Assembly: GCF_030384885.1 (NCBI RefSeq)
Contig: NZ_CP128613.1
Source of the DNA: Escherichia coli
GTDB lineage: Bacteria > Pseudomonadota > Gammaproteobacteria > Enterobacterales > Enterobacteriaceae
DNA: 64,000 bases
Direction: 5' to 3' (one strand)
The notes beneath the pieces were generated by a model. That model searched no databases and was not told where the DNA came from. It worked only from the letters and a program-made list of their open reading frames with translations. Both the position numbers and the translations under genes were made by a program. Below, piece by piece: positions 1 to 24,797 of this stretch (positions are counted from its first letter, which is position 1; the number at the start of each line of letters is the position of its first letter).

Positions 1-99
1 TTGTCGCCTCTGAAAAACCTCCATTTTGCTCATCCTGGACTAATCATTATCATTCTCTACAAATTCTATGGCGTTAATTTTTCGTTGGAGTGAAAATTA

Positions 100-275
100 T
101 TGCGGTAAAGTTTGGTAGATTTTAGTGGGTATAGAGTTATCTAAAATATTTACTTTTTTAATCAATGGATTAAGTGTTCTTTAACATAATGGATGTGTTG
201 TTTGTGTGATCCTGTAAAGTTGGTAGATTGTGACTGGCTTAAAAAATCATTAATTAATAATAGGTTATGTTTAGA
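100..275 (+). promoter_or_regulatory. AT-rich CRISPR leader upstream of the first repeat of the 16-repeat array; contains the motif agttggtagattgt shared with the leader of the second array
   Basis: AT-rich, no ORF, directly abuts repeat 1; motif gtaaagtt(t)ggtagatt occurs twice here (about 105-121 and 222-238) and again at about 22183-22200. Confidence 0.6.
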
Positions 276-1219
276 GAGTTCCCCGCGCCAGCGGGGATAA
301 ACCGCAAAAACATGCCTCTAATCGCCTCATATCGCCGAGTTCCCCGCGCCAGCGGGGATAAACCGTGAATTCGCGGTCGTCGGTAGTTATTGTCACAGAG
401 TTCCCCGCGCCAGCGGGGATAAACCGTTTATATCCCCGATACGCACGACGCGGACCGGGAGTTCCCCGCGCCAGCGGGGATAAACCGCCCCGCCCTCCTG
501 CACCACGATCGCGCCCTCAGAGTTCCCCGCGCCAGCGGGGATAAACCGCCTTACGCCTGCAACCTCGTGCCACAGTTCATGAGTTCCCCGCGCCAGCGGG
601 GATAAACCGGTTTTCAGTCCAGCGGCAGCTACGAGGAATCGGAGTTCCCCGCGCCAGCGGGGATAAACCGGATGGTTGAGGGTTATATGATGCCAGTTTA
701 CGGAGTTCCCCGCGCCAGCGGGGATAAACCGGCAAAAACCGGGCAATCGCAAAAAGGCGTAATGAGTTCCCCGCGCCAGCGGGGATAAACCGACGCTGAT
801 TATTCCGTACCAGTATTGTGAGGCGAGTTCCCCGCGCCAGCGGGGATAAACCGGATGACTCTGTGGCCTGGGTGGTTACCTGTCTGAGTTCCCCGCGCCA
901 GCGGGGATAAACCGCCCTGCCCGTTTTGCGGGAGTTCCAATGTTGAGAGTTCCCCGCGCCAGCGGGGATAAACCGCATTATTTTTAGACGGTTGCGGGAT
1001 TGGATTAGAGTTCCCCGCGCCAGCGGGGATAAACCGCGGCCTGGTCGATATCTCGCTGCTAGCGTCAAGAGTTCCCCGCGCCAGCGGGGATAAACCGTAA
1101 GATGATCTCACGGAATTGAACGAACTACGGAGTTCCCCGCGCCAGCGGGGATAAACCGGACACAGAGCGCTGCTATAGCGCCTATGCCAAGAGTTCCCCG
1201 CACCAGCGGGAATAAACCA
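276..1219 (+). CRISPR. Type I-E CRISPR array: 16 repeats of 29 bp (GAGTTCCCCGCGCCAGCGGGGATAAACCG) and 15 spacers of 32 bp, 61-bp period; last repeat degenerate (gagttccccgcaccagcgggaataaacca)
   Basis: Repeat starts read at 276, 337, 398 ... 1191, every 61 bp; spacers all unique; partially palindromic repeat typical of E. coli I-E. Confidence 0.97.
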
Positions 1220-1691
1220 CCATATAACCCGTTATCTCTTTCTCAAGTTTTTATATTAGCAGTACTCGTATTAAGCAACATATCCACGTAACACCTCATG
1301 TTCAAAATAGCTCTCCATATATGAGAAGTTCACAATTATCGATACAAAAAATCAAATTTAATTAAAGTGTTAGTTGTATGATACTTAAATCATTAAGAAA
1401 TTATCATATATTATTTTTTTAATATTGAATTGATGTTTGTTAATTTTTTCTTTAGGATAATGGTTTGTTTTTTAAGCTTATTATTCATTGATTAAGTAAT
1501 AAATCTGGAAGTTTGTCTTTGTTTTGAGGCTAATGAGTGATTTTACATAATCGCCTCTATACGCTGTTGATGAATAGTTCTTATGAATAAAGATATCCAG
1601 TTCATACTTTAAGTGAAAATTGATAAAGTACGATTCGCATAGTCTTTTATTCTAAGGACATCGATTGTAGTTAATATTCCTTGTAAAAACA

Positions 1692-1762
1692 GGGATAAAC
1701 CGGACTTGTTATAATTCTTGATGTTGTCGAACTTATGTTCCCCGCGCCAGCGGGGATAACCA
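1692..1762 (+). repeat. CRISPR remnant: truncated repeat 3' half (gggataaaccg), one 32-bp spacer-like segment, one degenerate repeat (atgttccccgcgccagcggggataacc)
   Basis: Direct reading of sequence about 470 bp downstream of the main array, just upstream of the ygcE 3' end. Confidence 0.6.
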
Positions 1763-1808
1763 TTCAGGTATGTTCAGGCCGGGCATTTTCCCGCCCGGCC
1801 TTCCTCAC

Positions 1809-3287
1809 TTACGCATTCGACCAGCTCTGGATCGAATCTGCATTCCCCAACTCACCATGCATCACTTCATACGATTTTTTCAGGATCACATCAGTGTGTT
1901 TGGTTAGGTCTTTGAAAATGCCTTTATTCATCGCGTCGTAGCGTTTGGCATTGCTCTCAATCGGCATAAAGATATCTTTCACGCGAACCATTTTGTCGAC
2001 AGCCGTTGCGTAATCCGGGTATAGCCCCAGACCTACCGCCGTATTAATCGCTGCCCCCAGGCTTGCACAACCGTTAATGGCGTTACGTCGTGCCGGAAGG
2101 TTGAACACGTCGGCAAAAATTTGCATAAACAGATCGCTGTTCGAACCGCCGCCAGTAATGATCACATGTTTCGCAAAGTGATTCATTTCATGACACATAT
2201 TGTCGTAATTGTTCTTCAGCGTCAGCGCCACGCTTTCCAGTATCGAACGATATATCCATGCGTAATCCATGCTGGAATCAAAGCCGATCATAATCCCGCG
2301 TTTGTACGGTTCCCACGGATTGGTCAGCCAGTCCAGCACCGTCATCAGACCATTACAGCCAGGCGGCACACAAGAAGCTTTTTTGTTGAGCAAATCTTCC
2401 GGTGAAAGATCCTGTGCCCTGGCATCCTGAATTAACGACTCGCCTAACATGTCGCGAAGCCAGCTCACCGTCCACATGCCTTTGCGAATACCGTAACCTT
2501 CATACAGCAAGGTTTGCGGAATAGAAGACATAATCGGCCAGTACGCTACCGGATCTTTCGGCAGTACTTTGCCGTTCATCATCAACGCGATGTAAGTGCC
2601 AAGAGAAATTACCGCCGTTTCATCATCCAGTAACCCGGCTCCCAGTGCTTCTACCGGTTTATCACTGGTGGTACAAACAACTGGCAGCCCAGCCGGGAAA
2701 TGTGTCGCCAGCGCGGCTTGTGGTGTGATATGCCCAAGAACAGTGCCCGGCATTTGCACATCAAAAAGCATCTGTCGGGGAATATTAAACTTCTCCATTA
2801 CCGCGGTATCTTCGCTCCATGCCCAGGTCTTATAATCCACCGGCCACTGACCAAAATAGTTGGCGATATTGTCTTTAAACTCGCCGGTTAAACGGTGTGT
2901 CAGATAACCTGAAAAAGAGGTGGCATATGCCACATCAGGATTGGTGTGCTCGTAGGGACGTGTTACGCGTGCATCCTGCCAGCTAATCAACGGCGCAGCT
3001 GGCGTGCCATCGGCTTTCAATAACGCACGGCAGCAACGGATAGATCCCAGACCAATGCCGACAATATCTTCTTTATTCCCGGCAAACTGGCTCATCAAAT
3101 CGTGACCAGCAAAACATAATGATGCCCATAAATCATCGTCAGGATGTTCTGCGGTATCGGCATCTGGAGTGTGCATCGGTTGTAATAAGCCTTTGCCTTC
3201 GCAAACCACGTTACCTTCCAGATCGTACATCACCACTTTTGTGCTCTGACTTCCGCCATCAATCCCTATGATGTATTTTTTCGACAT
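1809..3287 (-). CDS. ygcE: FGGY-family carbohydrate kinase (492 aa)
   Basis: Full-length ORF; N-terminus MSKKYIIGIDGGSQSTK typical of the glycerol/xylulose kinase fold. Confidence 0.9.
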   Translation of the reverse strand: MSKKYIIGIDGGSQSTKVVMYDLEGNVVCEGKGLLQPMHTPDADTAEHPDDDLWASLCFAGHDLMSQFAGNKEDIVGIGLGSIRCCRALLKADGTPAAPLISWQDARVTRPYEHTNPDVAYATSFSGYLTHRLTGEFKDNIANYFGQWPVDYKTWAWSEDTAVMEKFNIPRQMLFDVQMPGTVLGHITPQAALATHFPAGLPVVCTTSDKPVEALGAGLLDDETAVISLGTYIALMMNGKVLPKDPVAYWPIMSSIPQTLLYEGYGIRKGMWTVSWLRDMLGESLIQDARAQDLSPEDLLNKKASCVPPGCNGLMTVLDWLTNPWEPYKRGIMIGFDSSMDYAWIYRSILESVALTLKNNYDNMCHEMNHFAKHVIITGGGSNSDLFMQIFADVFNLPARRNAINGCASLGAAINTAVGLGLYPDYATAVDKMVRVKDIFMPIESNAKRYDAMNKGIFKDLTKHTDVILKKSYEVMHGELGNADSIQSWSNA

Positions 3288-3313
3288 GATTTTTCTCCTG
3301 TAATTTTCCTGGC

Positions 3314-4591
3314 TTACTTGCTGCTAGCCATTGCGGGGGTGCTATCAGCAGTACGAATTTTTTGGAACAGCAAAAAGGTAAAGACGATCACCATGCCAAG
3401 CGCCGCCATGCCCATCAGCCACATATTGCGGTAGGCTTCTGCAGCGGGCAGGGTGTCTTGCCAGTAGCCGATAATTGGGTAAACGAAGACATCCGGCAGA
3501 AATCCAATCACCGAACAAATACCTACCGTGGTGCCCATAATGTAAGACGGTGTTCTCGCTTCGCCAGGGCAGGCCCAGTACAGCCCGCGTGAGGCGTAAC
3601 AGGTGAATCCCAGAAGTAAAATCAGACCAATCCCCATCGCGACCGATTGCGGGTTAGAGTTCGTGATGAGCAGGGCAGTTAACGCCAGCAGGCCGAGTAC
3701 GGAAAGTATTTGAATCACGCGGGTAGGGGATTTCACTTTGCTGTAGGTGGTGATAATGCCACCAAGTGGGCCGCACAGTGCGCGGAAGATTTTGTTGATC
3801 ACAATCCCCATGTAGCTCGCCGCCACCAGCGACATGCCGTACATTTCGGTCAGATAGTTGGTGGAGTAACTCAGAATGGCGTAGATGGTGAAGACGCCAA
3901 AAATCACCATGCTGCAGTACCATGTGGTGCTGATGCGCAAAACGGCCAGGATGTCGCTAAGCTGGAATGACTGTTTTTCTTCGTTATTGGCATTGCGCAG
4001 GTTGTTGTTATCGCTAACAAAAAACCAGCACAGAATCCCCAATAAAATGTAGACCACACTATAGATGATAATGACCGTTTTCAGGCTGGCGCTGTCATCC
4101 GGTGCAAAGCGAGAAAAGACCCACATGGTAAACACCGCCAGCGACATTACACCGACGCCGCGCAGCCCTTCCATCCAGCCCATAATTTTCCCCTGCTCGC
4201 TATGATCGCCAAGCAACGATGCGGCTTTAATCGACACCGACCACAGCATTAAAATCGTCGTTATCGCAAAGGCGACCTGAATACAGAGCATTACCCACAG
4301 CGGTGGATACGTTGCCATTAACAGACCCAGCAATCCGGTAATGATCATCGCGGAAGTAATCATTTTGCGATGCGAAAATTTATCGGCAATAACGCCGCTG
4401 GGGGCATAAAGAATAATAGCCGCAATACCAAAGGTACTCATTATTAAACCTATCTCGGTATTGCTGAATCCCATAAATTTAGCCATGGGAATTTGATAAA
4501 TATAACGTAAATAAGCCAGATCAAAACTAACGCCGCCACTAAAACTAATTATCGCGAGGGTTATCCAACGGCGATATGAGTTGTGTTGCAT
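3314..4591 (-). CDS. yqcE: MFS transporter (425 aa)
   Basis: Full-length hydrophobic ORF with multiple predicted TM segments. Confidence 0.88.
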   Translation of the reverse strand: MQHNSYRRWITLAIISFSGGVSFDLAYLRYIYQIPMAKFMGFSNTEIGLIMSTFGIAAIILYAPSGVIADKFSHRKMITSAMIITGLLGLLMATYPPLWVMLCIQVAFAITTILMLWSVSIKAASLLGDHSEQGKIMGWMEGLRGVGVMSLAVFTMWVFSRFAPDDSASLKTVIIIYSVVYILLGILCWFFVSDNNNLRNANNEEKQSFQLSDILAVLRISTTWYCSMVIFGVFTIYAILSYSTNYLTEMYGMSLVAASYMGIVINKIFRALCGPLGGIITTYSKVKSPTRVIQILSVLGLLALTALLITNSNPQSVAMGIGLILLLGFTCYASRGLYWACPGEARTPSYIMGTTVGICSVIGFLPDVFVYPIIGYWQDTLPAAEAYRNMWLMGMAALGMVIVFTFLLFQKIRTADSTPAMASSK

Positions 4592-4769
4592 ATCGTATTC
4601 CCATTTGTAATAGACAAAAAAAAGAGAAAAGTAAGCCGCCCTTTCAGGTGGATTACTTTTCTCAGGTCTCTAGTAATTGCAATAAGAAATAACATGGAAA
4701 GCAGGGGTGTTGTGTGAGAGTAGTCACGCTTCTGCTTTTTAAAATTATTTGACAATTCGAATATCACAC

Positions 4770-4785
4770 TGTGATTACGATCACA
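4770..4785. promoter_or_regulatory. Perfect CRP-type palindrome TGTGAttacgaTCACA in the yqcE/ygcW divergent intergenic region
   Basis: Sequence tgtgattacgatcaca matches the TGTGA-N6-TCACA consensus exactly; an overlapping palindrome atcacactgtgat lies immediately upstream. Confidence 0.55.
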
Positions 4786-4909
4786 TTAGCGCTTATGCCC
4801 TTATGCTAAAAATTATCTCCAGTTACCAGAGATAATGAGAAAGGTAACTTCCCTCTCGCGGGGGAAGTTACCTTTCTTTTTTTTTGCCTTACGGAAATTG
4901 GAGCTAACT

Positions 4910-5695
4910 ATGTCAATCGAATCTCTCAATGCGTTCTCAATGGATTTTTTCTCCCTGAAAGGTAAAACCGCAATTGTTACTGGTGGGAATAGCGGTTTAG
5001 GCCAGGCATTTGCCATGGCACTGGCAAAAGCAGGCGCAAATATCTTTATTCCTAGTTTCGTTAAAGATAATGGCGAAACAAAGGAAATGATTGAAAAACA
5101 GGGGGTTGAGGTGGGCTTCATGCAGGTGGATATCACCGCAGAAGGCGCGCCGCAGAAGATAATTGCCGCCTGTTGTGAACGTTTCGGCACCGTCGATATT
5201 CTGGTTAACAATGCCGGTATATGTAAGCTGAATAAGGTGCTGGATTTCGGTCGTGCCGACTGGGACCCGATGATTGACGTGAACCTGACCGCCGCATTCG
5301 AGTTAAGCTACGAAGCGGCAAAAATTATGATCCCGCAGAAAAGCGGTAAAATCATTAATATCTGTTCACTGTTTTCTTACTTAGGTGGTCAATGGTCTCC
5401 TGCTTATTCTGCCACTAAACACGCCCTTGCCGGATTTACCAAAGCCTATTGCGATGAATTAGGTCAATATAATATTCAGGTAAATGGTATTGCCCCAGGA
5501 TATTACGCTACCGATATCACCCTGGCGACACGCAGTAATCCAGAAACCAATCAGCGCGTTCTTGATCATATTCCAGCAAACCGTTGGGGCGATACTCAGG
5601 ATTTAATGGGCGCAGCCATATTTCTCGCAAGTCCGGCATCGAATTATGTCAACGGGCATTTATTAGTGGTTGATGGCGGTTATTTAGTGCGCTAA
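4910..5695 (+). CDS. ygcW: Short-chain dehydrogenase/reductase, KduD-like (261 aa)
   Basis: ATG at 4910 preceded by ggag; TGGNSGLG Rossmann motif; the longer track ORF from 4835 is rejected as an upstream in-frame extension. Confidence 0.88.
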   Translation: MSIESLNAFSMDFFSLKGKTAIVTGGNSGLGQAFAMALAKAGANIFIPSFVKDNGETKEMIEKQGVEVGFMQVDITAEGAPQKIIAACCERFGTVDILVNNAGICKLNKVLDFGRADWDPMIDVNLTAAFELSYEAAKIMIPQKSGKIINICSLFSYLGGQWSPAYSATKHALAGFTKAYCDELGQYNIQVNGIAPGYYATDITLATRSNPETNQRVLDHIPANRWGDTQDLMGAAIFLASPASNYVNGHLLVVDGGYLVR

Positions 5696-5764
5696 TCCAT
5701 AACGGTGGTTTCTGATTTCTTTTATTAATGACTATTCCATTTTTATTATCAGGAAGGAATTACT

Positions 5765-7219
5765 ATGTCTTTATCTCGCGCAGCGATTGTCGACCAGCTA
5801 AAGGAAATTGTTGGTGCAGATCGCGTAATTACCGATGAAACGGTATTGAAGAAAAACAGTATTGATCGTTTTCGTAAATTTCCGGATATTCATGGTATTT
5901 ATACTTTGCCTATTCCGGCAGCGGTCGTAAAACTCGGTTCCACTGAGCAAGTGTCCCGTGTGCTGAATTTTATGAATGCACACAAAATTAACGGCGTACC
6001 ACGTACCGGTGCTTCCGCTACCGAAGGCGGGCTGGAAACCGTTGTGGAAAACTCGGTGGTGCTTGATGGCTCTGCAATGAATCAAATCATTAATATTGAT
6101 ATAGAGAATATGCAGGCGACGGCGCAATGTGGCGTTCCGCTGGAAGTGCTGGAAAACGCGTTGCGTGAAAAAGGTTACACCACGGGGCACTCTCCGCAGT
6201 CAAAACCGTTGGCGCAGATGGGTGGACTGGTGGCGACCCGTAGTATTGGGCAGTTCTCCACACTCTACGGCGCAATCGAGGATATGGTCGTTGGCCTGGA
6301 AGCAGTACTGGCTGATGGCACCGTGACACGCATTAAAAACGTGCCACGACGCGCGGCGGGTCCGGACATTCGTCACATCATCATCGGCAACGAAGGCGCA
6401 TTGTGCTATATCACTGAAGTCACTGTGAAAATCTTTAAATTCACCCCGGAAAACAACCTCTTCTACGGCTATATCCTGGAAGACATGAAAACCGGCTTCA
6501 ACATCCTGCGTGAAATCATGGTGGAAGGATATCGTCCGTCGATCGCTCGTTTGTATGACGCTGAAGATGGCACCCAACACTTCACCCATTTTGCCGACGG
6601 AAAATGCGTGCTGATCTTTATGGCTGAAGGTAACCCTCGCATTGCGAAGGCGACGGGCGAAGGGATTGCTGAAATCGTGGCACGTTACCCGCAATGCCAG
6701 CGCGTGGACAGCAAGCTGATCGAAACCTGGTTTAACAACCTGAACTGGGGACCGGATAAAGTGGCTGCCGAACGTGTGCAGATCCTCAAAACCGGCAACA
6801 TGGGCTTTACCACCGAAGTGTCCGGCTGCTGGAGTTGCATACACGAAATCTACGAAAGCGTTATTAACCGTATTCGTACCGAGTTCGCGCACGCCGACGA
6901 CATCACCATGCTGGGCGGTCACTCCTCTCATAGCTATCAGAACGGCACCAACATGTACTTCGTCTACGACTACAACGTCGTTGACTGTAAGCCGGAAGAG
7001 GAAATCGACAAATACCACAATCCGCTCAACAAAATCATCTGCGAAGAAACCATTCGCCTCGGCGGTTCGATGGTACACCATCACGGTATCGGTAAACATC
7101 GTGTTCACTGGAGCAAACTGGAACACGGCAGCGCGTGGACATTGCTGGAAGGGCTGAAAAAACAGTTCGATCCTAACGGTATTATGAATACGGGTACTAT
7201 CTATCCGATTGAAAAATAA
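5765..7219 (+). CDS. ygcU: FAD-linked oxidoreductase, GlcD / alkyl-DHAP synthase-like (484 aa)
   Basis: Full-length ORF with FAD-binding PCMH-type architecture by composition and synteny. Confidence 0.85.
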   Translation: MSLSRAAIVDQLKEIVGADRVITDETVLKKNSIDRFRKFPDIHGIYTLPIPAAVVKLGSTEQVSRVLNFMNAHKINGVPRTGASATEGGLETVVENSVVLDGSAMNQIINIDIENMQATAQCGVPLEVLENALREKGYTTGHSPQSKPLAQMGGLVATRSIGQFSTLYGAIEDMVVGLEAVLADGTVTRIKNVPRRAAGPDIRHIIIGNEGALCYITEVTVKIFKFTPENNLFYGYILEDMKTGFNILREIMVEGYRPSIARLYDAEDGTQHFTHFADGKCVLIFMAEGNPRIAKATGEGIAEIVARYPQCQRVDSKLIETWFNNLNWGPDKVAAERVQILKTGNMGFTTEVSGCWSCIHEIYESVINRIRTEFAHADDITMLGGHSSHSYQNGTNMYFVYDYNVVDCKPEEEIDKYHNPLNKIICEETIRLGGSMVHHHGIGKHRVHWSKLEHGSAWTLLEGLKKQFDPNGIMNTGTIYPIEK

Positions 7220-7312
7220 TGTGTCAGGCAGCGTTTCGCGATGACGGGGCGTTGTCTTTTCGGCTTCTCAACCGGGAAGCCGTTCTTATTACCGGACAAT
7301 GAAGGGGTAAAG

Positions 7313-8650
7313 ATGAACACTTCACCGGTGCGAATGGATGATTTACCGCTTAACCGTTTTCACTGTCGAATTGCTGCGCTGACTTTCGGCGCACACCTGA
7401 CCGACGGTTATGTTCTCGGCGTCATTGGTTACGCCATAATTCAGCTTACTCCAGCCATGCAACTGACGCCGTTTATGGCGGGAATGATCGGCGGCTCGGC
7501 GCTACTTGGCCTGTTTATCGGCAGCCTGGTTTTGGGCTGGATCTCCGACCATATCGGGCGGCAAAAAATCTTCACCTTCAGCTTTATGCTGATTACGCTC
7601 GCCTCGTTCCTGCAATTTTTTGCCACCACGCCAGAGCATCTTATTGGACTACGCATTTTGATCGGCATTGGTCTGGGAGGCGACTATTCAGTAGGTCACA
7701 CCTTGCTGGCTGAATTTTCCCCGCGCCGCCATCGCGGTATTTTGCTAGGCGCTTTCAGCGTGGTGTGGACCGTAGGTTATGTGTTGGCAAGTCTTGCCGG
7801 ACATCACTTTATTAGCGAAAGCCCCGAAGCCTGGCGATGGTTACTTGCATCGGCGGCATTTCCTGCCCTGTTGATTACGTTGTTACGTTGGGGAACGCCA
7901 GAATCGCCACGCTGGCTACTGCGCCAGGGGCGTTTTGCAGAAGCTCACGCTATCGTGCATCGCTATTTTGGTCCCCATGTTTTACTGGGCGATGAAGTGG
8001 CAACGGCGACCCATAAACACATCAAAACCTTGTTCTCTTCGCGCTACTGGCGGCGCACGGCGTTTAACAGCGTCTTCTTTGTCTGCCTCGTAATCCCATG
8101 GTTTGTGATTTATACCTGGCTGCCAACTATCGCCCAAACTATTGGACTGGAAGATGCGCTGACTGCCAGCCTGATGCTTAATGCGTTGTTAATTGTGGGC
8201 GCGCTGCTGGGATTATTTCTGACGCACCTGCTGGCACATCGCAAATTTTTGCTGGGAAGTTTTTTGCTGCTGGCGGCAACGCTGGTAGTGATGGCCTGTT
8301 TGCCTTCTGGCAGTTCATTAACGCTGCTGCTTTTTGTTCTCTTCAGCACCACCATTTCGGCAGTCAGTAATCTGGTGGGCATTTTGCCTGCGGAAAGTTT
8401 TCCTACTGACATTCGCTCGCTGGGTGTCGGTTTTGCCACTGCCATGAGTCGGTTGGGGGCGGCGGTAAGTACTGGCCTGCTGCCGTGGGTGCTGGCGCAG
8501 TGGGGAATGCAAGTCACCTTATTGCTCCTGGCGGCAGTGTTGTTGGTTGGTTTTGTTGTGACCTGGCTATGGGCACCAGAAACCAAAGCACTCCCGCTGG
8601 TGGCGGCGGGAAATGTAGGAGGTACTAATGAACATTCTGTTAGCATTTAA
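7313..8650 (+). CDS. ygcS: MFS sugar-transporter-like protein (445 aa)
   Basis: Start ATG at 7313 after gaagggg SD; hydrophobic multi-TM ORF. Confidence 0.85.
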   Translation: MNTSPVRMDDLPLNRFHCRIAALTFGAHLTDGYVLGVIGYAIIQLTPAMQLTPFMAGMIGGSALLGLFIGSLVLGWISDHIGRQKIFTFSFMLITLASFLQFFATTPEHLIGLRILIGIGLGGDYSVGHTLLAEFSPRRHRGILLGAFSVVWTVGYVLASLAGHHFISESPEAWRWLLASAAFPALLITLLRWGTPESPRWLLRQGRFAEAHAIVHRYFGPHVLLGDEVATATHKHIKTLFSSRYWRRTAFNSVFFVCLVIPWFVIYTWLPTIAQTIGLEDALTASLMLNALLIVGALLGLFLTHLLAHRKFLLGSFLLLAATLVVMACLPSGSSLTLLLFVLFSTTISAVSNLVGILPAESFPTDIRSLGVGFATAMSRLGAAVSTGLLPWVLAQWGMQVTLLLLAAVLLVGFVVTWLWAPETKALPLVAAGNVGGTNEHSVSI

Positions 8651-9407
8651 AGCCGAACCGGATGCCGGAATGCTGGCGGAAAAAGAGTGGCAGGCAGCGG
8701 CTCAGGGTAATAGCGGACCGGATGTTTCGCTTCTGCGAAGTTTACTCGGTGCTGATGAACAGGCTGCCGCCGCGCTGCTGTTGGCGCAGAGAAAAAACGG
8801 TACGTCGATGTCTTTAACCGCGTTGAGCATGGGGGATGAACGGGCGTTGCACTGGCTGCGCTATCTCATGGCTCTTGGGTTTGAGGAAGCTGTATTGCTG
8901 GAGACGGCGGCAGATCTGCGCTTTGCGCCGGAATTTGTCGCTCGCCATATTGCCGAATGGCAGCGCCAGAATCCGCTGGATCTGATCATTACTGGCTGCC
9001 AGAGCAGCGAAGGGCAGAACGGGCAAACGCCATTTTTGCTGGCGGAAATGCTGACCTGGCCCTGTTTTACCCAGGTGGAGCGTTTTACTCTCGACGCACC
9101 GTTTATCTCGCTCGAACAGCGTACTGAACATGGATTACGCTGTTGTCGGGTTCGCTTGCCTGCGGTGATTGCCGTGCGCCAGTGTGGCGAGGTGGCCTTG
9201 CCAGTACCGGGAATGCGCCAGCGAATGGCTGCGGGGAAAGCTGAAATTATCCGCAAAACTGTTACTGCTGAATCGTCAGCGATGCAGTGCCGGCAACTGG
9301 AAAGGCCAGAGCAACGACGCGGTGCAACGCTTCTTGATGGGCAAACGGTAGCAGAAAAAGCGCAAAAGCTATGGCAGGACTATTTACGCCAAAGGATGCA
9401 GCCATGA
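8628..9407 (+). CDS. ygcR: Electron transfer flavoprotein beta-subunit-like (FixA-like) protein (259 aa)
   Basis: ORF overlaps the ygcS 3' end; ETF-beta-like sequence; synteny with ygcQ. Confidence 0.82.
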   Translation: MNILLAFKAEPDAGMLAEKEWQAAAQGNSGPDVSLLRSLLGADEQAAAALLLAQRKNGTSMSLTALSMGDERALHWLRYLMALGFEEAVLLETAADLRFAPEFVARHIAEWQRQNPLDLIITGCQSSEGQNGQTPFLLAEMLTWPCFTQVERFTLDAPFISLEQRTEHGLRCCRVRLPAVIAVRQCGEVALPVPGMRQRMAAGKAEIIRKTVTAESSAMQCRQLERPEQRRGATLLDGQTVAEKAQKLWQDYLRQRMQP

Positions 9408-10264
9408 ATATCGCCATTGTGACAATAAATCAGGAACATGCCGCAATAGCGGGCTGGCTGGCGGAGCAGGATTTCAGCGGCAGCACATTAACGCACTGGC
9501 AAATCGAGCCGCAGCCGATGGTCGCGGAACAGGTGCTGGATGCGCTGGTAGAACAGTGGCAGCGAACGCCTGCGGACGTTGTTCTCTTTCCGCCGGGAAC
9601 GTTTGGCGATGAACTGGCTACCCGCCTGTCCTGGCGTTTACATGGTGCCAGTATATGCCAGGTGACTTCATTAAATATTCCAACCGGAAGCGTACGCAAA
9701 TCCCACTGGGGAAATGCGCTAACGGCGACGCTGCAAACAGAAAAACGCCCGCTATGCCTTTCCCTTGCCCGCCAGGCGGGAGCAGTGAAAAATGCCACGT
9801 TGCCCTCTGGTATGCAGCAACTGAACATTGTCCCCGGCGCGCTTCCCGACTGGCTGGTTAGCACAGAGGATCTGAAAAATGTTACCCACGACCCATTAGC
9901 TGAGGCCAGACGGGTGCTGGTGGTGGGGCAGGGCGGAGAGGCAGATAACCAGGAAATCGCTATGCTGGCAGAAAAGCTGGGAGCCGAAGCGGGCTACAGT
10001 CGGGCGCGAGTAATGAACGGTGGCGTTGATGCCGAAAAAGTGATTGGTATTTCCGGACATCTGCTGGCACCTGAGGTGTGTATTGTTGTTGGCGCTTCCG
10101 GCGCAGCAGCGTTAATGGCGGGCGTCCGCAATAGCAAGTTTGTGGTGGCGATTAATCATGACGCCAGCGCGGCGGTATTTTCACAGGCAGATGTTGGCGT
10201 GGTTGATGACTGGAAAGCGGTGCTGGAGGCACTGGTGACAACCATTCACGCAGATTGCCAATAA
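9404..10264 (+). CDS. ygcQ: Electron transfer flavoprotein alpha-subunit-like (FixB-like) protein (286 aa)
   Basis: ATG at 9404 with AGGA SD, 4-bp overlap with ygcR; C-terminal ETF FAD-binding-like region. Confidence 0.82.
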   Translation: MNIAIVTINQEHAAIAGWLAEQDFSGSTLTHWQIEPQPMVAEQVLDALVEQWQRTPADVVLFPPGTFGDELATRLSWRLHGASICQVTSLNIPTGSVRKSHWGNALTATLQTEKRPLCLSLARQAGAVKNATLPSGMQQLNIVPGALPDWLVSTEDLKNVTHDPLAEARRVLVVGQGGEADNQEIAMLAEKLGAEAGYSRARVMNGGVDAEKVIGISGHLLAPEVCIVVGASGAAALMAGVRNSKFVVAINHDASAAVFSQADVGVVDDWKAVLEALVTTIHADCQ

Positions 10265-10307
10265 CGTGCTGCCGGATGATCCTGTCTACGGTTCTGGGCT
10301 GGGGACT

Positions 10308-10377
10308 GTAGGCCTGATAAGACGCGTCAAGCGTCGTATCAGGCGCTGAATGCCGGATTAGGCATGTGGCCTACAAA
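10308..10377. repeat. REP/BIME repetitive extragenic palindromes
   Basis: gtaggcctgataagacgcg...cgtcgtatcaggcg and gccggattaggcatgtggcctac inverted GC-rich palindromes typical of E. coli REP. Confidence 0.75.
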
Positions 10378-10409
10378 TCACACAAATTCAATTCGTTACG
10401 ATTATCTCG

Positions 10410-10985
10410 TCAAAGCAATTTTTTCGCTAACGTCCAGACCCCGGTATTCGTGGTAGAAAGCGCCACTACACCGGCGTTAATCGCATTACGCGCATCTTCT
10501 TCATCGCACACCAGCCCGCCAGCAATCAGCGGCTGGTGGATTTTCTCCGTTACCCAGCCCAGCACTTTAGGCATACAGCCTGGCAGAATTTCAATACAAT
10601 CAGGATTCGATTGCGCAACCTGCTTATCAATGTTGTGAAAAGAAATCGAGTCGACAATAAACAAGCGATGAATACAGAAAAAGCCTTCCGCTCTCGCCGC
10701 TTTTAGCATTGACGCTTTGGTACTGATAATGCCGTCCGCCTCGGTCACCAGTTTCAGAAACTGAATTACTACTTCTTTATTTGACGCGCCTTCCAGCAAA
10801 TCGACATGAATAAAAGCATATTTTCCGGCGTTCTTAATCTTTTTGACGATATGACTGATGGTGCAAATATTGCCGTATAACACGGAAATAAACTGGCATT
10901 CAGAATCGATTGCCAACTGCAGGCTGGCATTATCTTTAACGGCAGCAATCACCGGATTCTGGCGGAGCAGGTGTAAGAGGGGCAT
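10410..10985 (-). CDS. ygcP: GlpP-like glycerol-3-phosphate-responsive antiterminator family protein (191 aa)
   Basis: Full-length ORF; family assignment from memory. Confidence 0.8.
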   Translation of the reverse strand: MPLLHLLRQNPVIAAVKDNASLQLAIDSECQFISVLYGNICTISHIVKKIKNAGKYAFIHVDLLEGASNKEVVIQFLKLVTEADGIISTKASMLKAARAEGFFCIHRLFIVDSISFHNIDKQVAQSNPDCIEILPGCMPKVLGWVTEKIHQPLIAGGLVCDEEDARNAINAGVVALSTTNTGVWTLAKKLL

Positions 10986-11001
10986 AAATTATCCTTATTA
11001 T

Positions 11002-11262
11002 TTATCCAAAGCGGTAGGTGATGCCGAATCCGGAAGGCGGATAGCGCCACTGTTGTAGGTTTTTTTCATCACACAGTAAACGGCAGGTGCCACACTCCAG
11101 GCAGCCGCGATAATCAACGCGTAAGTCGCCTTCCGGCGTGAGCGAAAAAAGACCAGCCGGACAAGCGTTAATCAACCGTTCTGCCGTCTGGCGCTCAACG
11201 GAGTCTGCCGGAACAATATGTGGCGCATCAGCAGCGCGCCAGAGATTACGGGCTACAGACAT
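11002..11262 (-). CDS. ygcO: Ferredoxin-like protein, FixX-like (86 aa)
   Basis: Start at MSVARN with AGGAG SD; cysteine cluster CLECGTCRLLC. Confidence 0.8.
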   Translation of the reverse strand: MSVARNLWRAADAPHIVPADSVERQTAERLINACPAGLFSLTPEGDLRVDYRGCLECGTCRLLCDEKNLQQWRYPPSGFGITYRFG

Positions 11263-12524
11263 CGAATACTCCTGACAACATCGCCCGCCAGATGCCACAG
11301 GCCATGACGACGTAAATGACGCCAGAGCAACTGGCGCAGCGGCGGAACAGGTTTATCACCTTGATCCCATAAATCACGGGAAATATCCTGCATTAACGCA
11401 GGCCACTTACGGTACCAGCCCGGGCGTTGCAAAAGCGCCGGAACATGCTGATAACGCTGTAGAACATCCCACAACATGCTGTGCTCTACATTGTGATGAT
11501 AAAGCGGAAACAGATTTTGCGGCTCGCGGTGCTGACAGGCGCTTATCAGCGTGTGTGCCGCCGCCTGCGCGCCAGTCAGCGCCATATCCATGCCGCGCAC
11601 GGAAATTCCGGTATTGACGCAACTGCGCAACGTATCGCCCACCAGCAGCCAGCCGTTACCGCCATATTGCACCGGCATACTGTGCAGCCCACCTTCCGGC
11701 ACCAGATGCGCGCCATACTCCAGTGATTCCGTGTTTTTGATAAGCGGGCGCACTGCCGGATGCGTTTTAAAGCGAGCCAGCAGCTCGCTTGCCGGAACAC
11801 GACTTTGCGTAAGTGAAGAGAGCGGGCAAACAATCCCTAACGAGAGCGTTTGTTGATTAGTATAAAGAAATGCGCCGCCGGGTAAGTCATCACAGATTTC
11901 GCCGCTGAATAACAACGCTGCGCCTTCGTTATTCTCCAGATGAAAACGTTCTTCAATAGCGGATGTTTCCAGTGACAGAACTTCTTTAATCCCCAACGCC
12001 ATCACTTCGCCAGCAGGACGAGTCACTAACCCGTGACGCTCAGACAGGACGCTGTTGGCACCTTCTGCCAGCACCACATAACGGGCGCGGAGAATATCGT
12101 CACCACAAATAACGCCGCAAACTCTGCCTTTTTCTTCATACAGTGCATCCACCGTCGTACCGGGGATGCATTCGACACCTTCTTTTTCGGCTTCGGCAAC
12201 CAGCCACGGATCGAATCGCGCACGTAATACACTCCAGGATTCACCGTCGGGCTGTAAGCTGGAAAACGTCGTTGCGCCATCGGGCGTTAACAGAGAAAGG
12301 CTTTCGTGAGTGATGCGTCGTTCAAGGGGCGCGGTCAGGTGAAATTGAGGGAGGAGTTCCGCAAGTGCATGGGTATATAACCGCCCGCCGGAAAGATTTT
12401 TGCTGCCGGGAATTTCAGCGCGTTCCAGTAACAAAACGGATAAACCCGCTCGCGCGCAGCGTAACGCGCAAGCAGTGCCTGCAATACCGGCACCAATAAT
12501 AATAATGTCGCAGTCGTCTTCCAT
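11253..12524 (-). CDS. ygcN: FAD-dependent oxidoreductase, FixC / ETF-ubiquinone-oxidoreductase-like (423 aa)
   Basis: N-terminal DIIIIGAGIAG dinucleotide-binding motif; start taken at MEDDCD. Confidence 0.82.
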   Translation of the reverse strand: MEDDCDIIIIGAGIAGTACALRCARAGLSVLLLERAEIPGSKNLSGGRLYTHALAELLPQFHLTAPLERRITHESLSLLTPDGATTFSSLQPDGESWSVLRARFDPWLVAEAEKEGVECIPGTTVDALYEEKGRVCGVICGDDILRARYVVLAEGANSVLSERHGLVTRPAGEVMALGIKEVLSLETSAIEERFHLENNEGAALLFSGEICDDLPGGAFLYTNQQTLSLGIVCPLSSLTQSRVPASELLARFKTHPAVRPLIKNTESLEYGAHLVPEGGLHSMPVQYGGNGWLLVGDTLRSCVNTGISVRGMDMALTGAQAAAHTLISACQHREPQNLFPLYHHNVEHSMLWDVLQRYQHVPALLQRPGWYRKWPALMQDISRDLWDQGDKPVPPLRQLLWRHLRRHGLWHLAGDVVRSIRCL

Positions 12525-12601
12525 GTCATGCCCCAGATATCCAGAACACAACACCCTAACATAGCGTTACTTAAGGGAAATTGACCGCCGACACACTCTT
12601 A

Positions 12602-12967
12602 TCATTCGCCGCGATAGATACAACCTGCGGTGCAGGTTTCTTTTACCATCACCGCACTTAACAGCGGCACAACGGGTTTAACCTGATCCCAAATCCATTT
12701 TGCTAAAACTTCGCTGGTTGGGTTTTCCAGACCTGGAATATCATTGAGATAATGGTGATCGAGGCGCTCATAAGTTGGCTTAAACGCTGCTTTCAGTTCA
12801 GCGAAATCGATAATCCAGCCCGTATGCGGATCGACTTCCCCGGTAATTTCCAGTCGCACCATAAAGGAATGCCCGTGCAGGCGACCACATTTATGCCCTT
12901 CCGGGACGTGTGGTAAGCGGTGAGCGGCTTCGAAGGTGAAATCTTTAAATAACGTGGTGGACATCAT
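12602..12967 (-). CDS. queD: 6-carboxy-5,6,7,8-tetrahydropterin synthase (121 aa)
   Basis: [19 protein letters not shown]...GHSF motif pattern of the PTPS/QueD family. Confidence 0.88.
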
Positions 12968-13282
12968 AATTTCTCTACAGGACGATAAAACCGCCGTAGA
13001 GTACCGGAAAGGCTGTTTTTTCGCATTATCTAAAACGACTTTGTTGCGCAAAATCGCTGATTTATCTTAATGATTGGATAAATTCATTTGTTTTTCATTG
13101 GGTTGAGTAATCTATTTTGTTGTTAAAGACTATTGCTAAAACAGGTTAGTCGATTTGGTTATTAGTTATCGCTATCCCGTCTTTAATCCACACCGTTCAT
13201 CCCGTTAACCTTACCTTCTCTTCTGTTTTATGGGCGCTGACAGGGCGCAGAAACAGCTTTGCTTACTGGAACATAACGACGC

Positions 13283-15082
13283 ATGACGACACAGGTCCCA
13301 CCTTCCGCGTTGCTTCCGTTGAACCCGGAGCAACTGGCACGCCTTCAGGCGGCCACGACCGATTTAACTCCCACCCAGCTTGCCTGGGTTTCTGGCTATT
13401 TCTGGGGCGTGCTCAACCAGCAGCCTGCTGCGCTTACAGCGACGCCAGCGCCCGCCGCAGAAATGCCGGGTATAACTATTATCTCCGCTTCGCAAACCGG
13501 CAATGCGCGCCGGGTTGCTGAAACATTACGCGATGATTTATTAGCGGCAAAACTGAACGTTAAGCTGGTGAACGCGGGCGACTATAAATTCAAACAAATC
13601 GCCAGCGAAAAACTGCTCATCGTGGTGACGTCAACGCAAGGTGAAGGGGAACCGCCGGAAGAGGCCGTCGCGCTGCATAAGTTCCTGTTCTCCAAAAAAG
13701 CGCCGAAGCTGGAAAACACCGCGTTTGCCGTGTTTAGTCTCGGCGATAGCTCTTATGAATTTTTCTGCCAGTCCGGGAAAGATTTCGATAGCAAGCTGGC
13801 GGAACTGGGCGGTGAACGCCTGCTCGACCGTGTCGATGCCGACGTTGAATACCAGGCTGCTGCCAGCGAGTGGCGCGCCCGCGTGGTCGATGTTCTTAAA
13901 TCGCGCGCGCCTGTCGCAGCACCTTCACAATCCGTCGCTACTGGCGCGGTAAATGAAATCCACACCAGCCCGTACAGCAAAGACGCGCCGCTGGTGGCGA
14001 GCCTTTCGGTTAACCAGAAAATTACCGGGCGTAACTCTGAAAAAGACGTTCGCCATATCGAAATTGACTTAGGTGACTCTGGCCTGCGTTATCAGCCGGG
14101 TGACGCGCTGGGCGTCTGGTATCAGAACGATCCGGCACTGGTGAAAGAACTTGTCGAACTGCTGTGGCTGAAAGGTGATGAACCTGTCACCGTTGAGGGC
14201 AAAACCCTGCCGCTGAATGAGGCGCTACAGTGGCATTTTGAACTCACCGTCAACACCGCCAACATCGTTGAGAACTACGCCACGCTAACCCGCAGTGAAA
14301 CGCTGCTGCCGCTGGTGGGCGATAAATCGAAGTTACAGCATTACGCCGCGACGACGCCGATTGTCGACATGGTGCGTTTTTCTCCGGCACAGCTTGACGC
14401 TGAAGCCCTGATTAACTTGCTGCGCCCGCTGACGCCGCGCCTGTACTCCATCGCCTCCTCGCAGGCGGAAGTCGAGAACGAAGTACACGTCACCGTTGGC
14501 GTGGTGCGTTATGACGTGGAAGGCCGCGCCCGTGCTGGCGGTGCCTCCAGCTTCCTTGCGGACCGTGTGGAAGAAGAGGGCGAAGTCCGCGTATTTATCG
14601 AACATAACGACAACTTCCGCCTACCAGCCAACCCGGAAACGCCGGTGATTATGATTGGCCCGGGCACCGGCATCGCACCGTTCCGCGCCTTTATGCAGCA
14701 ACGTGCTGCTGACGAAGCGCCGGGTAAAAACTGGCTGTTCTTCGGCAACCCACACTTTACGGAAGATTTCCTCTACCAGGTGGAGTGGCAGCGCTACGTC
14801 AAAGAGGGCGTGCTGACACGTATCGATCTCGCCTGGTCGCGCGATCAAAAAGAAAAAATTTACGTACAAGACAAACTGCGCGAACAGGGCGCAGAGCTGT
14901 GGCGCTGGATCAATGACGGTGCCCACATTTATGTCTGCGGCGACGCTAATCGCATGGCGAAAGACGTTGAACAGGCACTTCTGGAAGTGATTGCCGAATT
15001 TGGTGGCATGGACACCGAAGCGGCGGATGAATTTTTAAGTGAGCTGCGCGTAGAGCGCCGTTATCAGCGAGATGTCTACTAA
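13283..15082 (+). CDS. cysJ: Sulfite reductase [NADPH] flavoprotein alpha component (599 aa)
   Basis: Flavodoxin-like plus FAD/NADPH reductase domains; synteny cysJIH. Confidence 0.95.
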
Positions 15083-16794
15083 TGAACGAAAAACATCCAG
15101 GGCCTTTAGTGGTCGAAGGAAAACTGACAGACGCCGAGCGCATGAAGCTTGAGAGCAACTACCTGCGCGGGACCATTGCGGAAGATTTAAACGACGGTCT
15201 GACCGGCGGCTTTAAGGGCGACAACTTCCTGCTGATCCGTTTCCACGGTATGTATCAGCAGGATGACCGCGATATCCGCGCCGAACGTGCTGAACAGAAG
15301 CTGGAACCGCGTCATGCGATGCTGCTGCGCTGCCGTCTGCCGGGTGGGGTGATCACCACTAAACAGTGGCAGGCAATTGATAAATTCGCCGGTGAAAACA
15401 CCATTTATGGCAGCATTCGCCTGACCAACCGCCAGACGTTCCAGTTCCACGGCATTCTGAAAAAGAACGTCAAACCGGTGCACCAGATGCTGCATTCGGT
15501 CGGTCTTGATGCGCTGGCGACCGCCAACGACATGAACCGTAATGTACTCTGCACCTCGAACCCATTTGAATCTCAGTTGCACGCGGAAGCGTATGAGTGG
15601 GCGAAGAAAATCTCTGAACATCTGCTGCCGCGTACCCGCGCCTACGCGGAGATCTGGCTCGATCAGGAGAAAGTCGCCACCACCGATGAAGAACCCATCC
15701 TCGGTCAGACCTACCTGCCGCGTAAATTCAAAACCACGGTAGTGATCCCGCCGCAGAACGATATCGATCTGCACGCCAACGACATGAACTTTGTGGCGAT
15801 CGCGGAAAACGGCAAGCTGGTGGGCTTCAACCTGCTGGTGGGCGGTGGGCTTTCTATCGAACACGGCAACAAGAAAACCTACGCCCGCACGGCGAGCGAG
15901 TTTGGCTATCTGCCACTGGAGCATACGCTGGCGGTGGCGGAAGCGGTCGTTACCACTCAGCGTGACTGGGGTAATCGTACTGACCGTAAAAACGCCAAAA
16001 CCAAATACACGCTGGAGCGCGTGGGTGTTGAGACGTTTAAAGCAGAAGTGGAACGTCGCGCGGGGATCAAATTTGAGCCGATCCGTCCTTATGAATTTAC
16101 CGGACGCGGCGATCGTATCGGCTGGGTAAAAGGGATCGATGACAAATGGCACCTGACGCTGTTTATCGAAAATGGCCGAATTCTTGATTATCCGGGGCGT
16201 CCGCTGAAAACCGGCCTGCTGGAGATCGCGAAGATCCACAAAGGTGATTTCCGCATTACGGCGAACCAGAATCTGATCATCGCCGGTGTACCGGAAAGCG
16301 AGAAAGCGAAGATTGAGAAGATCGCCAAAGAGAGCGGATTGATGAATGCCGTCACGCCGCAGCGCGAAAACTCAATGGCCTGCGTGTCATTCCCGACTTG
16401 CCCGTTGGCGATGGCGGAAGCGGAGCGTTTCCTGCCGTCGTTTATCGATAACATCGATAATTTAATGGCGAAACATGGTGTCAGCGATGAGCACATCGTG
16501 ATGCGTGTAACAGGCTGCCCGAACGGTTGTGGTCGCGCGATGCTGGCGGAAGTGGGCCTGGTGGGTAAAGCGCCGGGTCGCTACAACCTGCATCTTGGCG
16601 GCAACCGCATGGGAACGCGTATCCCACGGATGTATAAAGAAAACATCACCGAGCCGGAAATCCTGGCGACGCTTGATGAACTGATAGGGCGCTGGGCGAA
16701 AGAGCGTGAAGCGGGTGAAGGCTTCGGTGACTTTACGGTGCGTGCGGGCATCATTCGCCCGGTGCTCGATCCGGCGCGTGATTTGTGGGATTAA
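15082..16794 (+). CDS. cysI: Sulfite reductase [NADPH] hemoprotein beta component (570 aa)
   Basis: ATG overlaps the cysJ stop; siroheme/4Fe-4S sulfite reductase family sequence. Confidence 0.95.
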
Positions 16795-16814
16795 CCATCA
16801 GTCCAGTCTTGTAG

Positions 16815-16848
16815 GCCTGATAAGACGCGTAAGCGTCGCATCAGGCAA
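16815..16848. repeat. REP element between cysI and cysH
   Basis: gtaggcctgataagacgcgtaagcgtcgcatcaggc palindrome. Confidence 0.7.
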
Positions 16849-16867
16849 GGCAAACAGTGAGGAATCT

Positions 16868-17602: not shown

Positions 17603-17865
17603 ATATTGTCGGATAAAATAAACGCCTCTGTCAGAAATGATGGGGGTGTTTTTATTTTGCGAGCAGCATTCCGGCATTTAAACGTGAATATAGCAGGGGA
17701 AATCAACAGTTATAGAATGGCGTCGGGTGCTTGAGGCTGTCTGGCGTTAAGCATTCGCGAGGTTCCAGATGGACAAAAGCCCCAGGCGATATATCTATCA
17801 ACCTGAGGCTCGCGTTCGAACGTAGCAATTCGGATGTTAGTCTCTTCTTTGCAGGGAGGCAAGAC

Positions 17866-18018
17866 ATGCTGACAAAATATGCCCTTGTGGCAATCATCGT
17901 ACTGTGTTGTACAGTACTGGGATTCACGCTGATGGTAGGCGACTCGTTGTGTGAGTTGAGTATCAGAGAACGTGGTATGGAGTTTAAGGCAGTTCTCGCT
18001 TACGAATCGAAGAAGTAG
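17866..18018 (+). CDS. Hok/Gef-family type I toxin, HokE-like small membrane peptide (50 aa)
   Basis: ATG 17866 after GGGAGG; peptide [50 protein letters not shown] has one TM helix and the conserved Hok C-terminal pattern; 8-bp stem-loop 18024-18045 follows the stop. Confidence 0.75.
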
Positions 18019-19690: not shown

Positions 19691-19746
19691 GGATACGGCG
19701 TGATGACACCGAATGCTTAAACGCGTTTAATCGCCACTATTCACTG

Positions 19747-20936: not shown

Positions 20937-22146
<1,210 letters not shown>

Positions 22147-22576: not shown

Positions 22577-22597
22577 CAACTCCCATTTTCAAACGCC

Positions 22598-24796: not shown

Positions 24797-24797
24797 G

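Follow-up and report, generated by a model that had tools for sequence, protein, structure and literature searches.

The window (the whole stretch of 64,000 nucleotides analyzed here) carries a CRISPR array at positions 276 to 1219, which sits between queE (ygcF) and ygcE with its leader on the queE side, according to the annotation of the near-identical NZ_CP027579.1 (strain 2013C-4282). The end of queE lies ~63 bp before window position 1, and the following features make up this end of the window.

1–275, plus strand: CRISPR2 leader, the AT-rich intergenic region between queE and the array, near-identical to the K-12, E400634, and PEC1011 leaders
276–1219, plus strand: CRISPR2 array (CRISPR-II locus), 16 repeats of 29 nt and 15 spacers of 32 nt
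305–336, plus strand: newest CRISPR2 spacer (S1), leader-proximal
1191–1219, plus strand: terminal degenerate repeat GAGTTCCCCGCACCAGCGGGAATAAACCA, 3 mismatches, predicted hairpin of −9.8 kcal/mol
1220–1689, no strand: AT-rich stretch of ~0.5 kb between the main array and the CRISPR2.2 remnant
1690–1763, plus strand: CRISPR2.2 remnant, composed of a truncated repeat CAGGGATAAACCG, one spacer, and a degenerate repeat
1703–1734, plus strand: 32-nt spacer of the CRISPR2.2 remnant
1735–1763, plus strand: degenerate repeat of the CRISPR2.2 remnant
1809–3287, minus strand: ygcE, the downstream neighbor of the CRISPR2 array

The 29-nt repeat is GAGTTCCCCGCGCCAGCGGGGATAAACCG, present in 15 identical copies that start at 276 + 61n. 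Its 27-nt core, GTTCCCCGCGCCAGCGGGGATAAACCG, occurs 16 times from 278 to 1219 with an exact 61-bp period; the first 15 match it perfectly and the sixteenth with 3 mismatches. Except at position 2, the repeats agree with those of K-12. Across the whole window the core gave 22 matches versus none in 100 shuffles. All 15 spacers are 32 nt long and different from one another, the closest pair differing at 16 of 32 positions. A sequence-only reading of this DNA had counted 15 unique 32-nt spacers in the interval, which the 61-bp periodicity and the spacer comparison confirm, and the spacer sequences that it quoted are exact. The repeat is predicted to fold into a 7-bp Cas6e-type hairpin (−15.1 kcal/mol), which is weaker in the terminal repeat, and this terminal repeat is identical in E400634. 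An Rfam scan of the array region returned no matching family. Locus, leader, and repeat together identify the array as CRISPR2, with no contradicting evidence. It is a known, already annotated locus, and the counterpart of the interval in NZ_CP027579.1 bears the RefSeq feature "CRISPR."

Alignment of the two leaders of the window showed blocks common to CRISPR2 and CRISPR1, including a AGTTGGTAGATTGT box; a simple sigma-70 promoter scan of the CRISPR2 leader found no site. The CRISPR2.2 remnant has a two-repeat homologue in K-12 and E400634, with 4 differing positions in its spacer. The succession of array, AT-rich gap, and CRISPR2.2 remnant has been described for E. coli (PMC10910852; PMC3903273). 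The Diez-Villasenor/Almendros scheme names the main array CRISPR2.3, the remnant CRISPR2.2, and the array next to the cas genes CRISPR2.1.

The first cas remnant of the window starts at 18214, far from the CRISPR2 array, and in NZ_CP027579.1 hok, cas3, casA–E, cas1, cas2, the second array, and iap lie 17 to 26 kb downstream of the array. The sequence-only reading had singled out the larger array for having no cas genes beside it. The observation is true, but it marks no peculiarity, because CRISPR2 always lies ~20 kb from the cas operon and this is the standard E. coli architecture. Published surveys place CRISPR1 and CRISPR2 ~20 kb apart with adjacent cas genes at CRISPR1 only (PMC10910852), and the CRISPR-II leader is kept whatever cas variant a strain has, even without cas genes (PMC3903273). 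The CRISPR2 array of E. coli is served in trans by a cas operon ~20 kb off (PMC10910852; PMC3903273). The gene content of the 64-kb window showed that the cas-E operon found at this distance is incomplete. Its features, together with the array beside it, are listed below.

18214–19690, plus strand: cas3 remnant, Pfam domain Cas3_HD kept
19680–19681, no strand: deletion junction with a 2-bp TG microhomology and no IS element
19681–20304, plus strand: cas5e fragment without its 5′ end
20286–20936, plus strand: cas6e, intact, 100% identical to NZ_CP027579.1
20933–21856, plus strand: cas1e, intact, 100% identical to NZ_CP027579.1
21853–22146, plus strand: cas2e, intact, 100% identical to NZ_CP027579.1
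22243–22576, plus strand: CRISPR1 array, 5 spacers, GTG-type repeats

The cas-adjacent array does hold 5 spacers, as had been noted from the sequence; the third of its repeats has a C at the end, and strong divergence marks the terminal one. The same reading described two repeat families that differ at position 2 (GAG versus GTG). The difference at this position is real, but it separates neither repeat families nor loci. K-12 CRISPR2 has GTG repeats with a GAG terminal repeat, GAG repeats occur in CRISPR2 of PEC1011 and E400634, and SE11 CRISPR1 has GTG repeats. This result indicates that GAG/GTG is a single-base polymorphism that is not locus-specific. Each integration copies the leader-proximal repeat, and position 2 is therefore uniform within an array.

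Comparison with 2013C-4282, which came from human stool in the USA and is listed as a complete, stx1-positive Escherichia cryptic clade I genome (PMC10100065), defined the loss in the cas operon. Window positions 1–19681 differ from NZ_CP027579.1 by 4 SNPs in ~20 kb, none of them in the array, and positions 19680–27373 are 100% identical to it. Relative to NZ_CP027579.1, a segment of 4,629 bp is missing between these blocks (L001 24682–29309), comprising the 3′ part of cas3, casA (cse1), casB (cse2), cas7e, and the first ~122 nt of cas5e. The deletion is genuine and not an assembly artefact, because it recurs in independent public assemblies: NCBI assembly GCA_036346665.1 carries it and is 100% identical to window positions 12257–25690, and two independent Logan run assemblies have the same deletion. 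In all, the truncated 477-aa Cas3 with the cas5 fragment, cas6e, cas1, and cas2 behind it is present on at least eight contigs, those of these assemblies included. The statement of the sequence-only reading that the interference genes are deleted is thus confirmed, both by the comparison with NZ_CP027579.1 and by these assemblies.

The 5′ end of cas3 is also altered. Its canonical ATG at 18214 is out of frame via an extra T near 18234 (relative to UK_Dog_Liverpool), which cuts short the N-terminal MRKYPLS... frame, and the open frame from a GTG at 18257 ends 9 nt past the deletion junction; this GTG might be a restart of cas3. The frameshift in the start region is common to the window and 2013C-4282, which points to decay rather than to selection for the deletion. 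From the gene content of the 64-kb window, Cascade would be unable to form in the deletion strain, and interference and priming would be lost, because cse1, cse2, cas7, an intact cas5, and the helicase part of Cas3 are absent. Pre-crRNA cleavage and naive acquisition might in principle persist, since cas6e, cas1, cas2, and both leaders are intact.

To assign targets, protospacers were sought in prophages, phages, and plasmids. STEC384 and STEC379 have a prophage at ttcA with protospacers for S3, S6, S7, S8, S9, and the newest CRISPR1 spacer (C1-S1), and relatives of this prophage were taken from IMG/VR and public assemblies. The assigned spacers of the two arrays (C2, CRISPR2; C1, CRISPR1) are as follows.

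427–458, plus strand: C2-S3; terL, 1 mismatch, AAG, in the STEC384 prophage (L003 7373–7404); L070/L071
610–885, plus strand: C2-S6 to C2-S10, five consecutive spacers, all matching the same phage family
S6: portal, 0 mismatches, AAG (L080/L081)
S7: start of gam, 4 mismatches, AAG, opposite strand (L004)
S8: baseplate hub, 1 mismatch, AAG (L086/L087)
S9: baseplate plug, 0 mismatches, AAG (L085/L088/L090)
S10: 367-aa protein after the baseplate wedge gene, 0 mismatches, AAG (L086/L087)
22272–22303: C1-S1, newest CRISPR1 spacer; recE-like gene, 0 mismatches, ATG (L091, L095–L097; CP057104.1)
22516–22547: C1-S5, oldest CRISPR1 spacer; SSU5/pHCM2-type phage-plasmids, 28/32 identities, AAG

Seven of the 20 spacers (six from CRISPR2 and C1-S1) therefore match one phage family with 0 to 4 mismatches, and all seven lie within the limit of ≤4 mismatches used for spacer matches by Dion et al. 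(PMC10910852). The best matches of the eight assigned spacers are preceded by AAG in seven cases, including C1-S5, and by ATG for C1-S1. S3 also matches 12 other family members with 2 to 4 mismatches, all with AAG. Some members have AAA or GAT in place of the PAM at the S8, S9, and S10 sites. PAM escape was rejected as a reading of the G/A variation at −1, because at all three sites this base falls on the third position of a Lys codon, where the change is synonymous, and the family is ~10% divergent. Six of the seven family-matching spacers lie on the same strand, which is no significant bias by itself (two-sided p ~0.12). The early region of these phages is lambdoid, encoding an integrase, Gam, a RecE-like protein, cI/Cro-type regulators, and NinG, and the late module specifies a contractile tail with Pfam domains named after Pseudomonas phage E217. 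The family TerL shares 70% identity with that of Pectobacterium phage ZF40 and 92% with Salmonella prophage proteins, and no close nucleotide relative of the family was found among 50,697 phage records.

The seven spacers from one family, five of them consecutive and six on one strand, would be compatible with primed adaptation, although repeated naive acquisition would look alike. The run S6–S10 together with S3 and C1-S1 most likely reflects repeated phage encounters and/or primed adaptation.

The phage and plasmid database searches of all 20 spacers that the sequence-only reading had proposed succeeded in part: C1-S5 matched SSU5-like elements, and all the other spacers gave no accepted match. 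In BLAST searches, C1-S5 was the only spacer to match the 50,697 phage records (SSU5 family) and likewise the only one to match 72,556 plasmids. Its matches comprise 676 plasmid records and 12 phage records, and the site is intergenic in SSU5. A repeat of the plasmid search without C1-S5 yielded a single match, of S4 to a Mycobacterium plasmid, which was taken as chance, as were the 21-nt matches (E = 3) of the GC-rich S4 to Microbacterium phages. We also used codon-phase-degenerate patterns, with N at predicted third codon positions. Patterns of S1, S2, S4, S5, and S13 had no match in IMG/VR, where S3, the positive control, found its contig; patterns of S1 and S8 had none in a set of one genome per species. 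In metagenomes, the S2 pattern recovered L063, the array of the strain itself, along with a site in a 1.1-kb contig that has 5 mismatches and no PAM; the protein encoded by this contig has no Pfam match. With ~0.5 such matches expected by chance for this pattern design, the site was taken as chance. Scans of ~40 phage-family loci with up to 8 mismatches found none of S1, S2, S4, S5, S11–S15, and C1-S2 to C1-S4. After the BLAST, pattern, and locus scans, 8 of the 20 spacers have assigned targets, each a temperate element, and 12 are unassigned.

An identical 15-spacer array is present in the window, in the cas-complete 2013C-4282, and in a metagenome contig (SKET01005227.1). Because the array is the same in a cas-complete relative and in the metagenome contig, its spacer content has not changed since the deletion occurred. 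The description of the spacers as a historical record, offered by the sequence-only reading, is borne out by these three sources, with the caveat that some naive uptake might in principle persist, cas1, cas2, cas6e, and the leaders being intact. E400634 and ~10 other genomes have S14, S15, and the degenerate terminal repeat as well, and several of these genomes, including E400634, also carry the oldest CRISPR1 spacer. The other 13 spacers occur as an ordered set only in 2013C-4282 among 5,426 complete genomes. This distribution matches growth at the leader end.

Some single spacers are shared more widely. S8 also stands at the newest, first position of K-12 CRISPR2 and is found in roughly 900 of the 5,426 complete genomes (987 genomes were matched with S8 and S14–S15 in the query and 74 without these). 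S9 is the first spacer of PEC1011 CRISPR2, and SE11 CRISPR1 has a variant of S6 with 3 mismatches in second place. Strain Rb-50 carries a type I-F spacer that shares an overlap of 29 identical nt with S5 at a 2-nt offset, which indicates that the target of S5 has been sampled by two different systems. A literature search on the S8 and S9 sequences found no paper. Other strains also have spacers that match the phage family: three of the six in K-12 CRISPR2, including the newest, 10 of 24 in PEC1011, 5 of 22 in SE11 CRISPR1, and 2 of 6 in E400634. The terL–portal region of the family is found in only 2 of the 5,426 complete genomes.

The sharing of S8, S9, and an S6-like spacer could mean that these spacers came by recombination between arrays, which would make the array a mosaic and not a linear chronology. 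Earlier work on E. coli and E. fergusonii proposed that distant strains exchange spacers (PMC3903273), and S8 stands in the middle of the array here versus the first position in K-12. However, the neighbors of each shared spacer are unrelated between the strains, the repeats around S8 differ (GAG here, GTG in K-12), and the S6-like spacer of SE11 lies in the other array, CRISPR1, and has 3 differing positions. The leader-proximal place of the shared spacer in both K-12 and PEC1011 fits separate acquisitions from a widely targeted phage, and we regard a mosaic origin as unlikely. We give similarly little credence to an array that is not frozen, in which naive adaptation may still add spacers as a memory without interference. 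In its favor, the leaders are conserved, cas1e, cas2e, and cas6e show 100% identity to annotated genes that are intact, and Yosef et al. reportedly found in 2012 that Cas1–Cas2 alone are enough for naive acquisition in E. coli. The casA promoter region, the usual driver of the cas operon, presumably lies inside the deleted segment, however, and the identity of the arrays in the deletion strain, its relative, and the metagenome contig gives no sign of acquisition. Under laboratory conditions, moreover, H-NS silences the type I-E system of E. coli (PMC10910852).

The sequence-only reading also proposed that a spacer matching the host chromosome would explain selection for the cas deletion. On this hypothesis autoimmunity drove the deletion: a spacer would have targeted the chromosome of the strain itself or a prophage resident in it, and the loss of Cascade and Cas3 would have rescued the cell. 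In other systems, self-targeting is a known source of selection for losing either the cas genes or the target (PMC3630108), a self-matching spacer occurs in ~10% of complete E. coli genomes (PMC10910852), and the arrays studied here target temperate phages able to lysogenise Escherichia. Nevertheless, a search of the 64-kb window that allowed up to 8 mismatches found no further site for any of the 20 spacers, and in three BLAST searches of the 2013C-4282 chromosome at E ≤ 10 (with the 15 CRISPR2 spacers, with 12 of these, and with the 5 CRISPR1 spacers) the arrays themselves were the sole matching places. The explanation is unsupported because no second match was found in the window or in this chromosome, that of the nearest complete genome. 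The 15 CRISPR2 spacers had no match in E. coli plasmid records either, and the terL–portal region of the phage family, so rare among complete genomes, is absent from 2013C-4282. The start of cas3 was already frameshifted in both strains, and other lineages have independent internal cas deletions, such as the cas3–cas7 fusion of UK_Dog_Liverpool. Autoimmunity as the cause thus appears very improbable, and neutral decay of a silenced system would be the simpler explanation. With a probability of about 90%, we conclude that positions 276 to 1219 are the Escherichia type I-E CRISPR2 array of a cryptic clade I strain near 2013C-4282, preserved as an unchanged fossil with its interference genes deleted.

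A type I-E array is transcribed from its leader, and Cas6e cuts the transcript at the base of the repeat hairpins to give 61-nt crRNAs. Cascade with a crRNA finds spacer-matching DNA beside an AAG or ATG PAM, Cas3 degrades that DNA, and Cas1–Cas2 insert each new spacer at the leader-proximal repeat. In this fossil CRISPR2 array, S14–S15 at the trailer end are inherited, in common with other lineages; S10, S9, S8, S7, S6, and later S3 were acquired from one temperate phage family, which is also the source of the newest CRISPR1 spacer. The cas deletion would have removed interference and priming, and the array persists unchanged.

The array itself adds little, being a textbook annotated locus in its normal place for which the idea of self-targeting failed. 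Its 15-spacer set and the cas3–cas5 junction are nevertheless a specific marker of one cryptic clade I lineage, recognizable in metagenomes, and this clade includes stx-positive human isolates. The targets suggest, tentatively, that a temperate myovirus family of Escherichia and Salmonella is a major natural target of type I-E systems yet almost absent as a prophage, a possibility that we rate as less likely than not. Were CRISPR the cause of this imbalance, the exclusion of one specific prophage by an E. coli system supposed to be silent would be evident in the field, and K-12 would gain a natural cognate phage for experiments. The family matches native K-12 spacers with the correct PAM and could serve in tests of protection by native E. 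coli spacers against a natural phage.

Compared with known systems, the array most resembles K-12 CRISPR2, with which it shares the locus, a near-identical leader, 29-nt repeats and 32-nt spacers, the terminal repeat type (...AAACCA), the 0.5-kb AT-rich gap, and the remnant repeat pair. By contrast, K-12 CRISPR2 has 6 spacers versus 15 in the window, 14 of the 15 window spacers differ from those of K-12, and repeat positions 1–3 read GAG in the window and GTG in K-12. The first CRISPR2.2 remnant repeat is truncated and the interference genes are deleted in the window strain. Type I-E primed adaptation was reportedly observed by Datsenko et al. and by Swarts et al. in 2012; the possible likeness here lies in runs of spacers from one replicon, AAG PAMs, and a shared strand, whereas the array is a natural one and 1 of the 7 spacers is on the other strand.

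Loss of interference genes with retention of arrays also has a counterpart. In UK_Dog_Liverpool (ST410-like), a separate internal deletion joins cas3 to a Cascade gene, and cas6e–cas1–cas2 and both arrays are kept. The breakpoints differ, however, falling between cas3 and cas5 in the window strain versus cas3 and cas7 in UK_Dog_Liverpool, and the window junction is without an IS element. The window lineage belongs to cryptic clade I (PMC10100065), unlike the ST410-like strains. More generally, E. coli strains with partial or absent cas-E genes that have kept their arrays are among the minor CRISPR-I arrangements of Almendros et al. 2014 (PMC3903273).

Dion et al. (2024), who sequenced CRISPR1 arrays alone, reported that E. 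coli spacers rarely match isolated phages, that they match temperate elements in bacterial genomes, and that same-genome matches are rare (PMC10910852). The window follows this pattern, with temperate targets for 8 of 20 spacers and no match of any of the 20 to the nearest host genome, but most of its assignments are in CRISPR2 and not in CRISPR1. Many spacers against a family that is near-absent as a prophage agree with the anti-prophage interpretation in that study, and the assignments made here extend to CRISPR2 the emerging picture of E. coli spacers as directed at temperate elements.

The temperate Escherichia/Salmonella myovirus family targeted by the 15-spacer type I-E array (CRISPR2, 276-1219) and by the newest spacer of the cas-adjacent array (CRISPR1, 22243-22576) is also represented in the arrays of unrelated strains. 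When the arrays of five loci (L057, L059, L061, L058, and L069) were compared with the phage loci L003-L098, their spacers matched this same family at 0 to 3 mismatches, and the PAMs at most of these matches were AAG or ATG.

Spacers of unrelated E. coli strains matching the target phage family
K-12 CRISPR2: 3 of 6 spacers (spacers 1, 4, and 5)
PEC1011 CRISPR2: 10 of 24 spacers
SE11 CRISPR1: 5 of 22 spacers
E400634 CRISPR2: 2 of 6 spacers
UK_Dog_Liverpool CRISPR1: 1 of 8 spacers

Of 5,426 complete E. coli genomes, just two contained the terL-portal region of the STEC384 prophage (L003:5968-9122), namely STEC384 and STEC379, both of them strains from Beijing pork. Spacer S8 of CRISPR2, directed at the same phage, was in contrast present in approximately 900 of these genomes. 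The phage family is easier to find in draft assemblies and metagenomes, with the exact TerL recorded in the index of 78 collection blocks. Among the phage loci L072, L074, L076, L082, and L083, the gene content between the lysis and terminase genes varied: a small protein carrying an Acb2_Tad1_hairpin domain (Pfam) is encoded there in some members of the family, and ParB-methyltransferase fusions occupy this position in others. Spacer S5 of CRISPR2 and a type I-F spacer of E. coli Rb-50, AGTCTTACGCCTGCAACCTCGTGCCACAGTTC (L060 1998-2029, in an array adjoining infA), overlap across 29 identical nucleotides and are offset by 2 nt.

Under an established rule, the last base of a repeat is derived from PAM position -1 and enters the array together with the spacer. 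The third CRISPR1 repeat (22365-22393) ends in C instead of G, and T-ending repeats are present in the K-12, E400634, and PEC1011 arrays; these C- and T-ending repeats are consistent with the PAM -1 rule and would therefore reflect spacers acquired from non-AAG flanks. The terminal CRISPR1 repeat (22548-22576, GAGCTCCCCCGCGTCAGCGGGGGAACTCC) is strongly diverged, and its predicted hairpin is longer and more stable (-22.2 kcal/mol) than that of the functional repeat. The CRISPR2 leader contains two copies of the motif GT(T)TGGTAGATT (108-122 and 216-230) and the CRISPR1 leader a single copy (22186-22199), at a similar distance to the first repeat, and all three copies are kept across strains. 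ORFs of 100 to 160 amino acids traverse the CRISPR2 array (577-1068 on the minus strand and neighboring ORFs), but these were rejected as artifacts because their translations reiterate repeat-derived motifs such as GLSPLARGT.

The identical 15-spacer array, together with queE and, upstream, the LemA and TPM-domain genes, is carried by a 6.4-kb metagenome contig, SKET01005227.1 (L063), so this array allows direct detection of the lineage in metagenomes. Relative to UK_Dog_Liverpool, the run AAGTTTTAC in the cas3 remnant (region 18214-18257) contains an additional T near position 18234, which shifts the canonical ATG of cas3 out of the reading frame. This T is shared with the near-identical relative 2013C-4282, whose cas3 is labeled "frameshifted" in RefSeq; its ORF downstream, from GTG 18257 on, is intact.

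In many further E. coli genomes the internal deletion is a different one: cas3 without its C-terminus is fused to cas7e without its N-terminus, and cas5e-cas6e-cas1-cas2 are retained. This fusion was seen in L069 (NZ_CP031653.1 1137595-1144250) and in the top matches of a sequence search, with an IS421 or IS150 element within the matched region in some genomes. Loss of the cas3-cse1-cse2 segment therefore appears to be recurrent. A hok/gef toxin gene lies at 17866-18018, flanked by cysH and cas3. Because hok-sok is found in every arrangement except those carrying the E2 cas variant (PMC3903273), the cas locus described here does not belong to the K-12 (E2) type.
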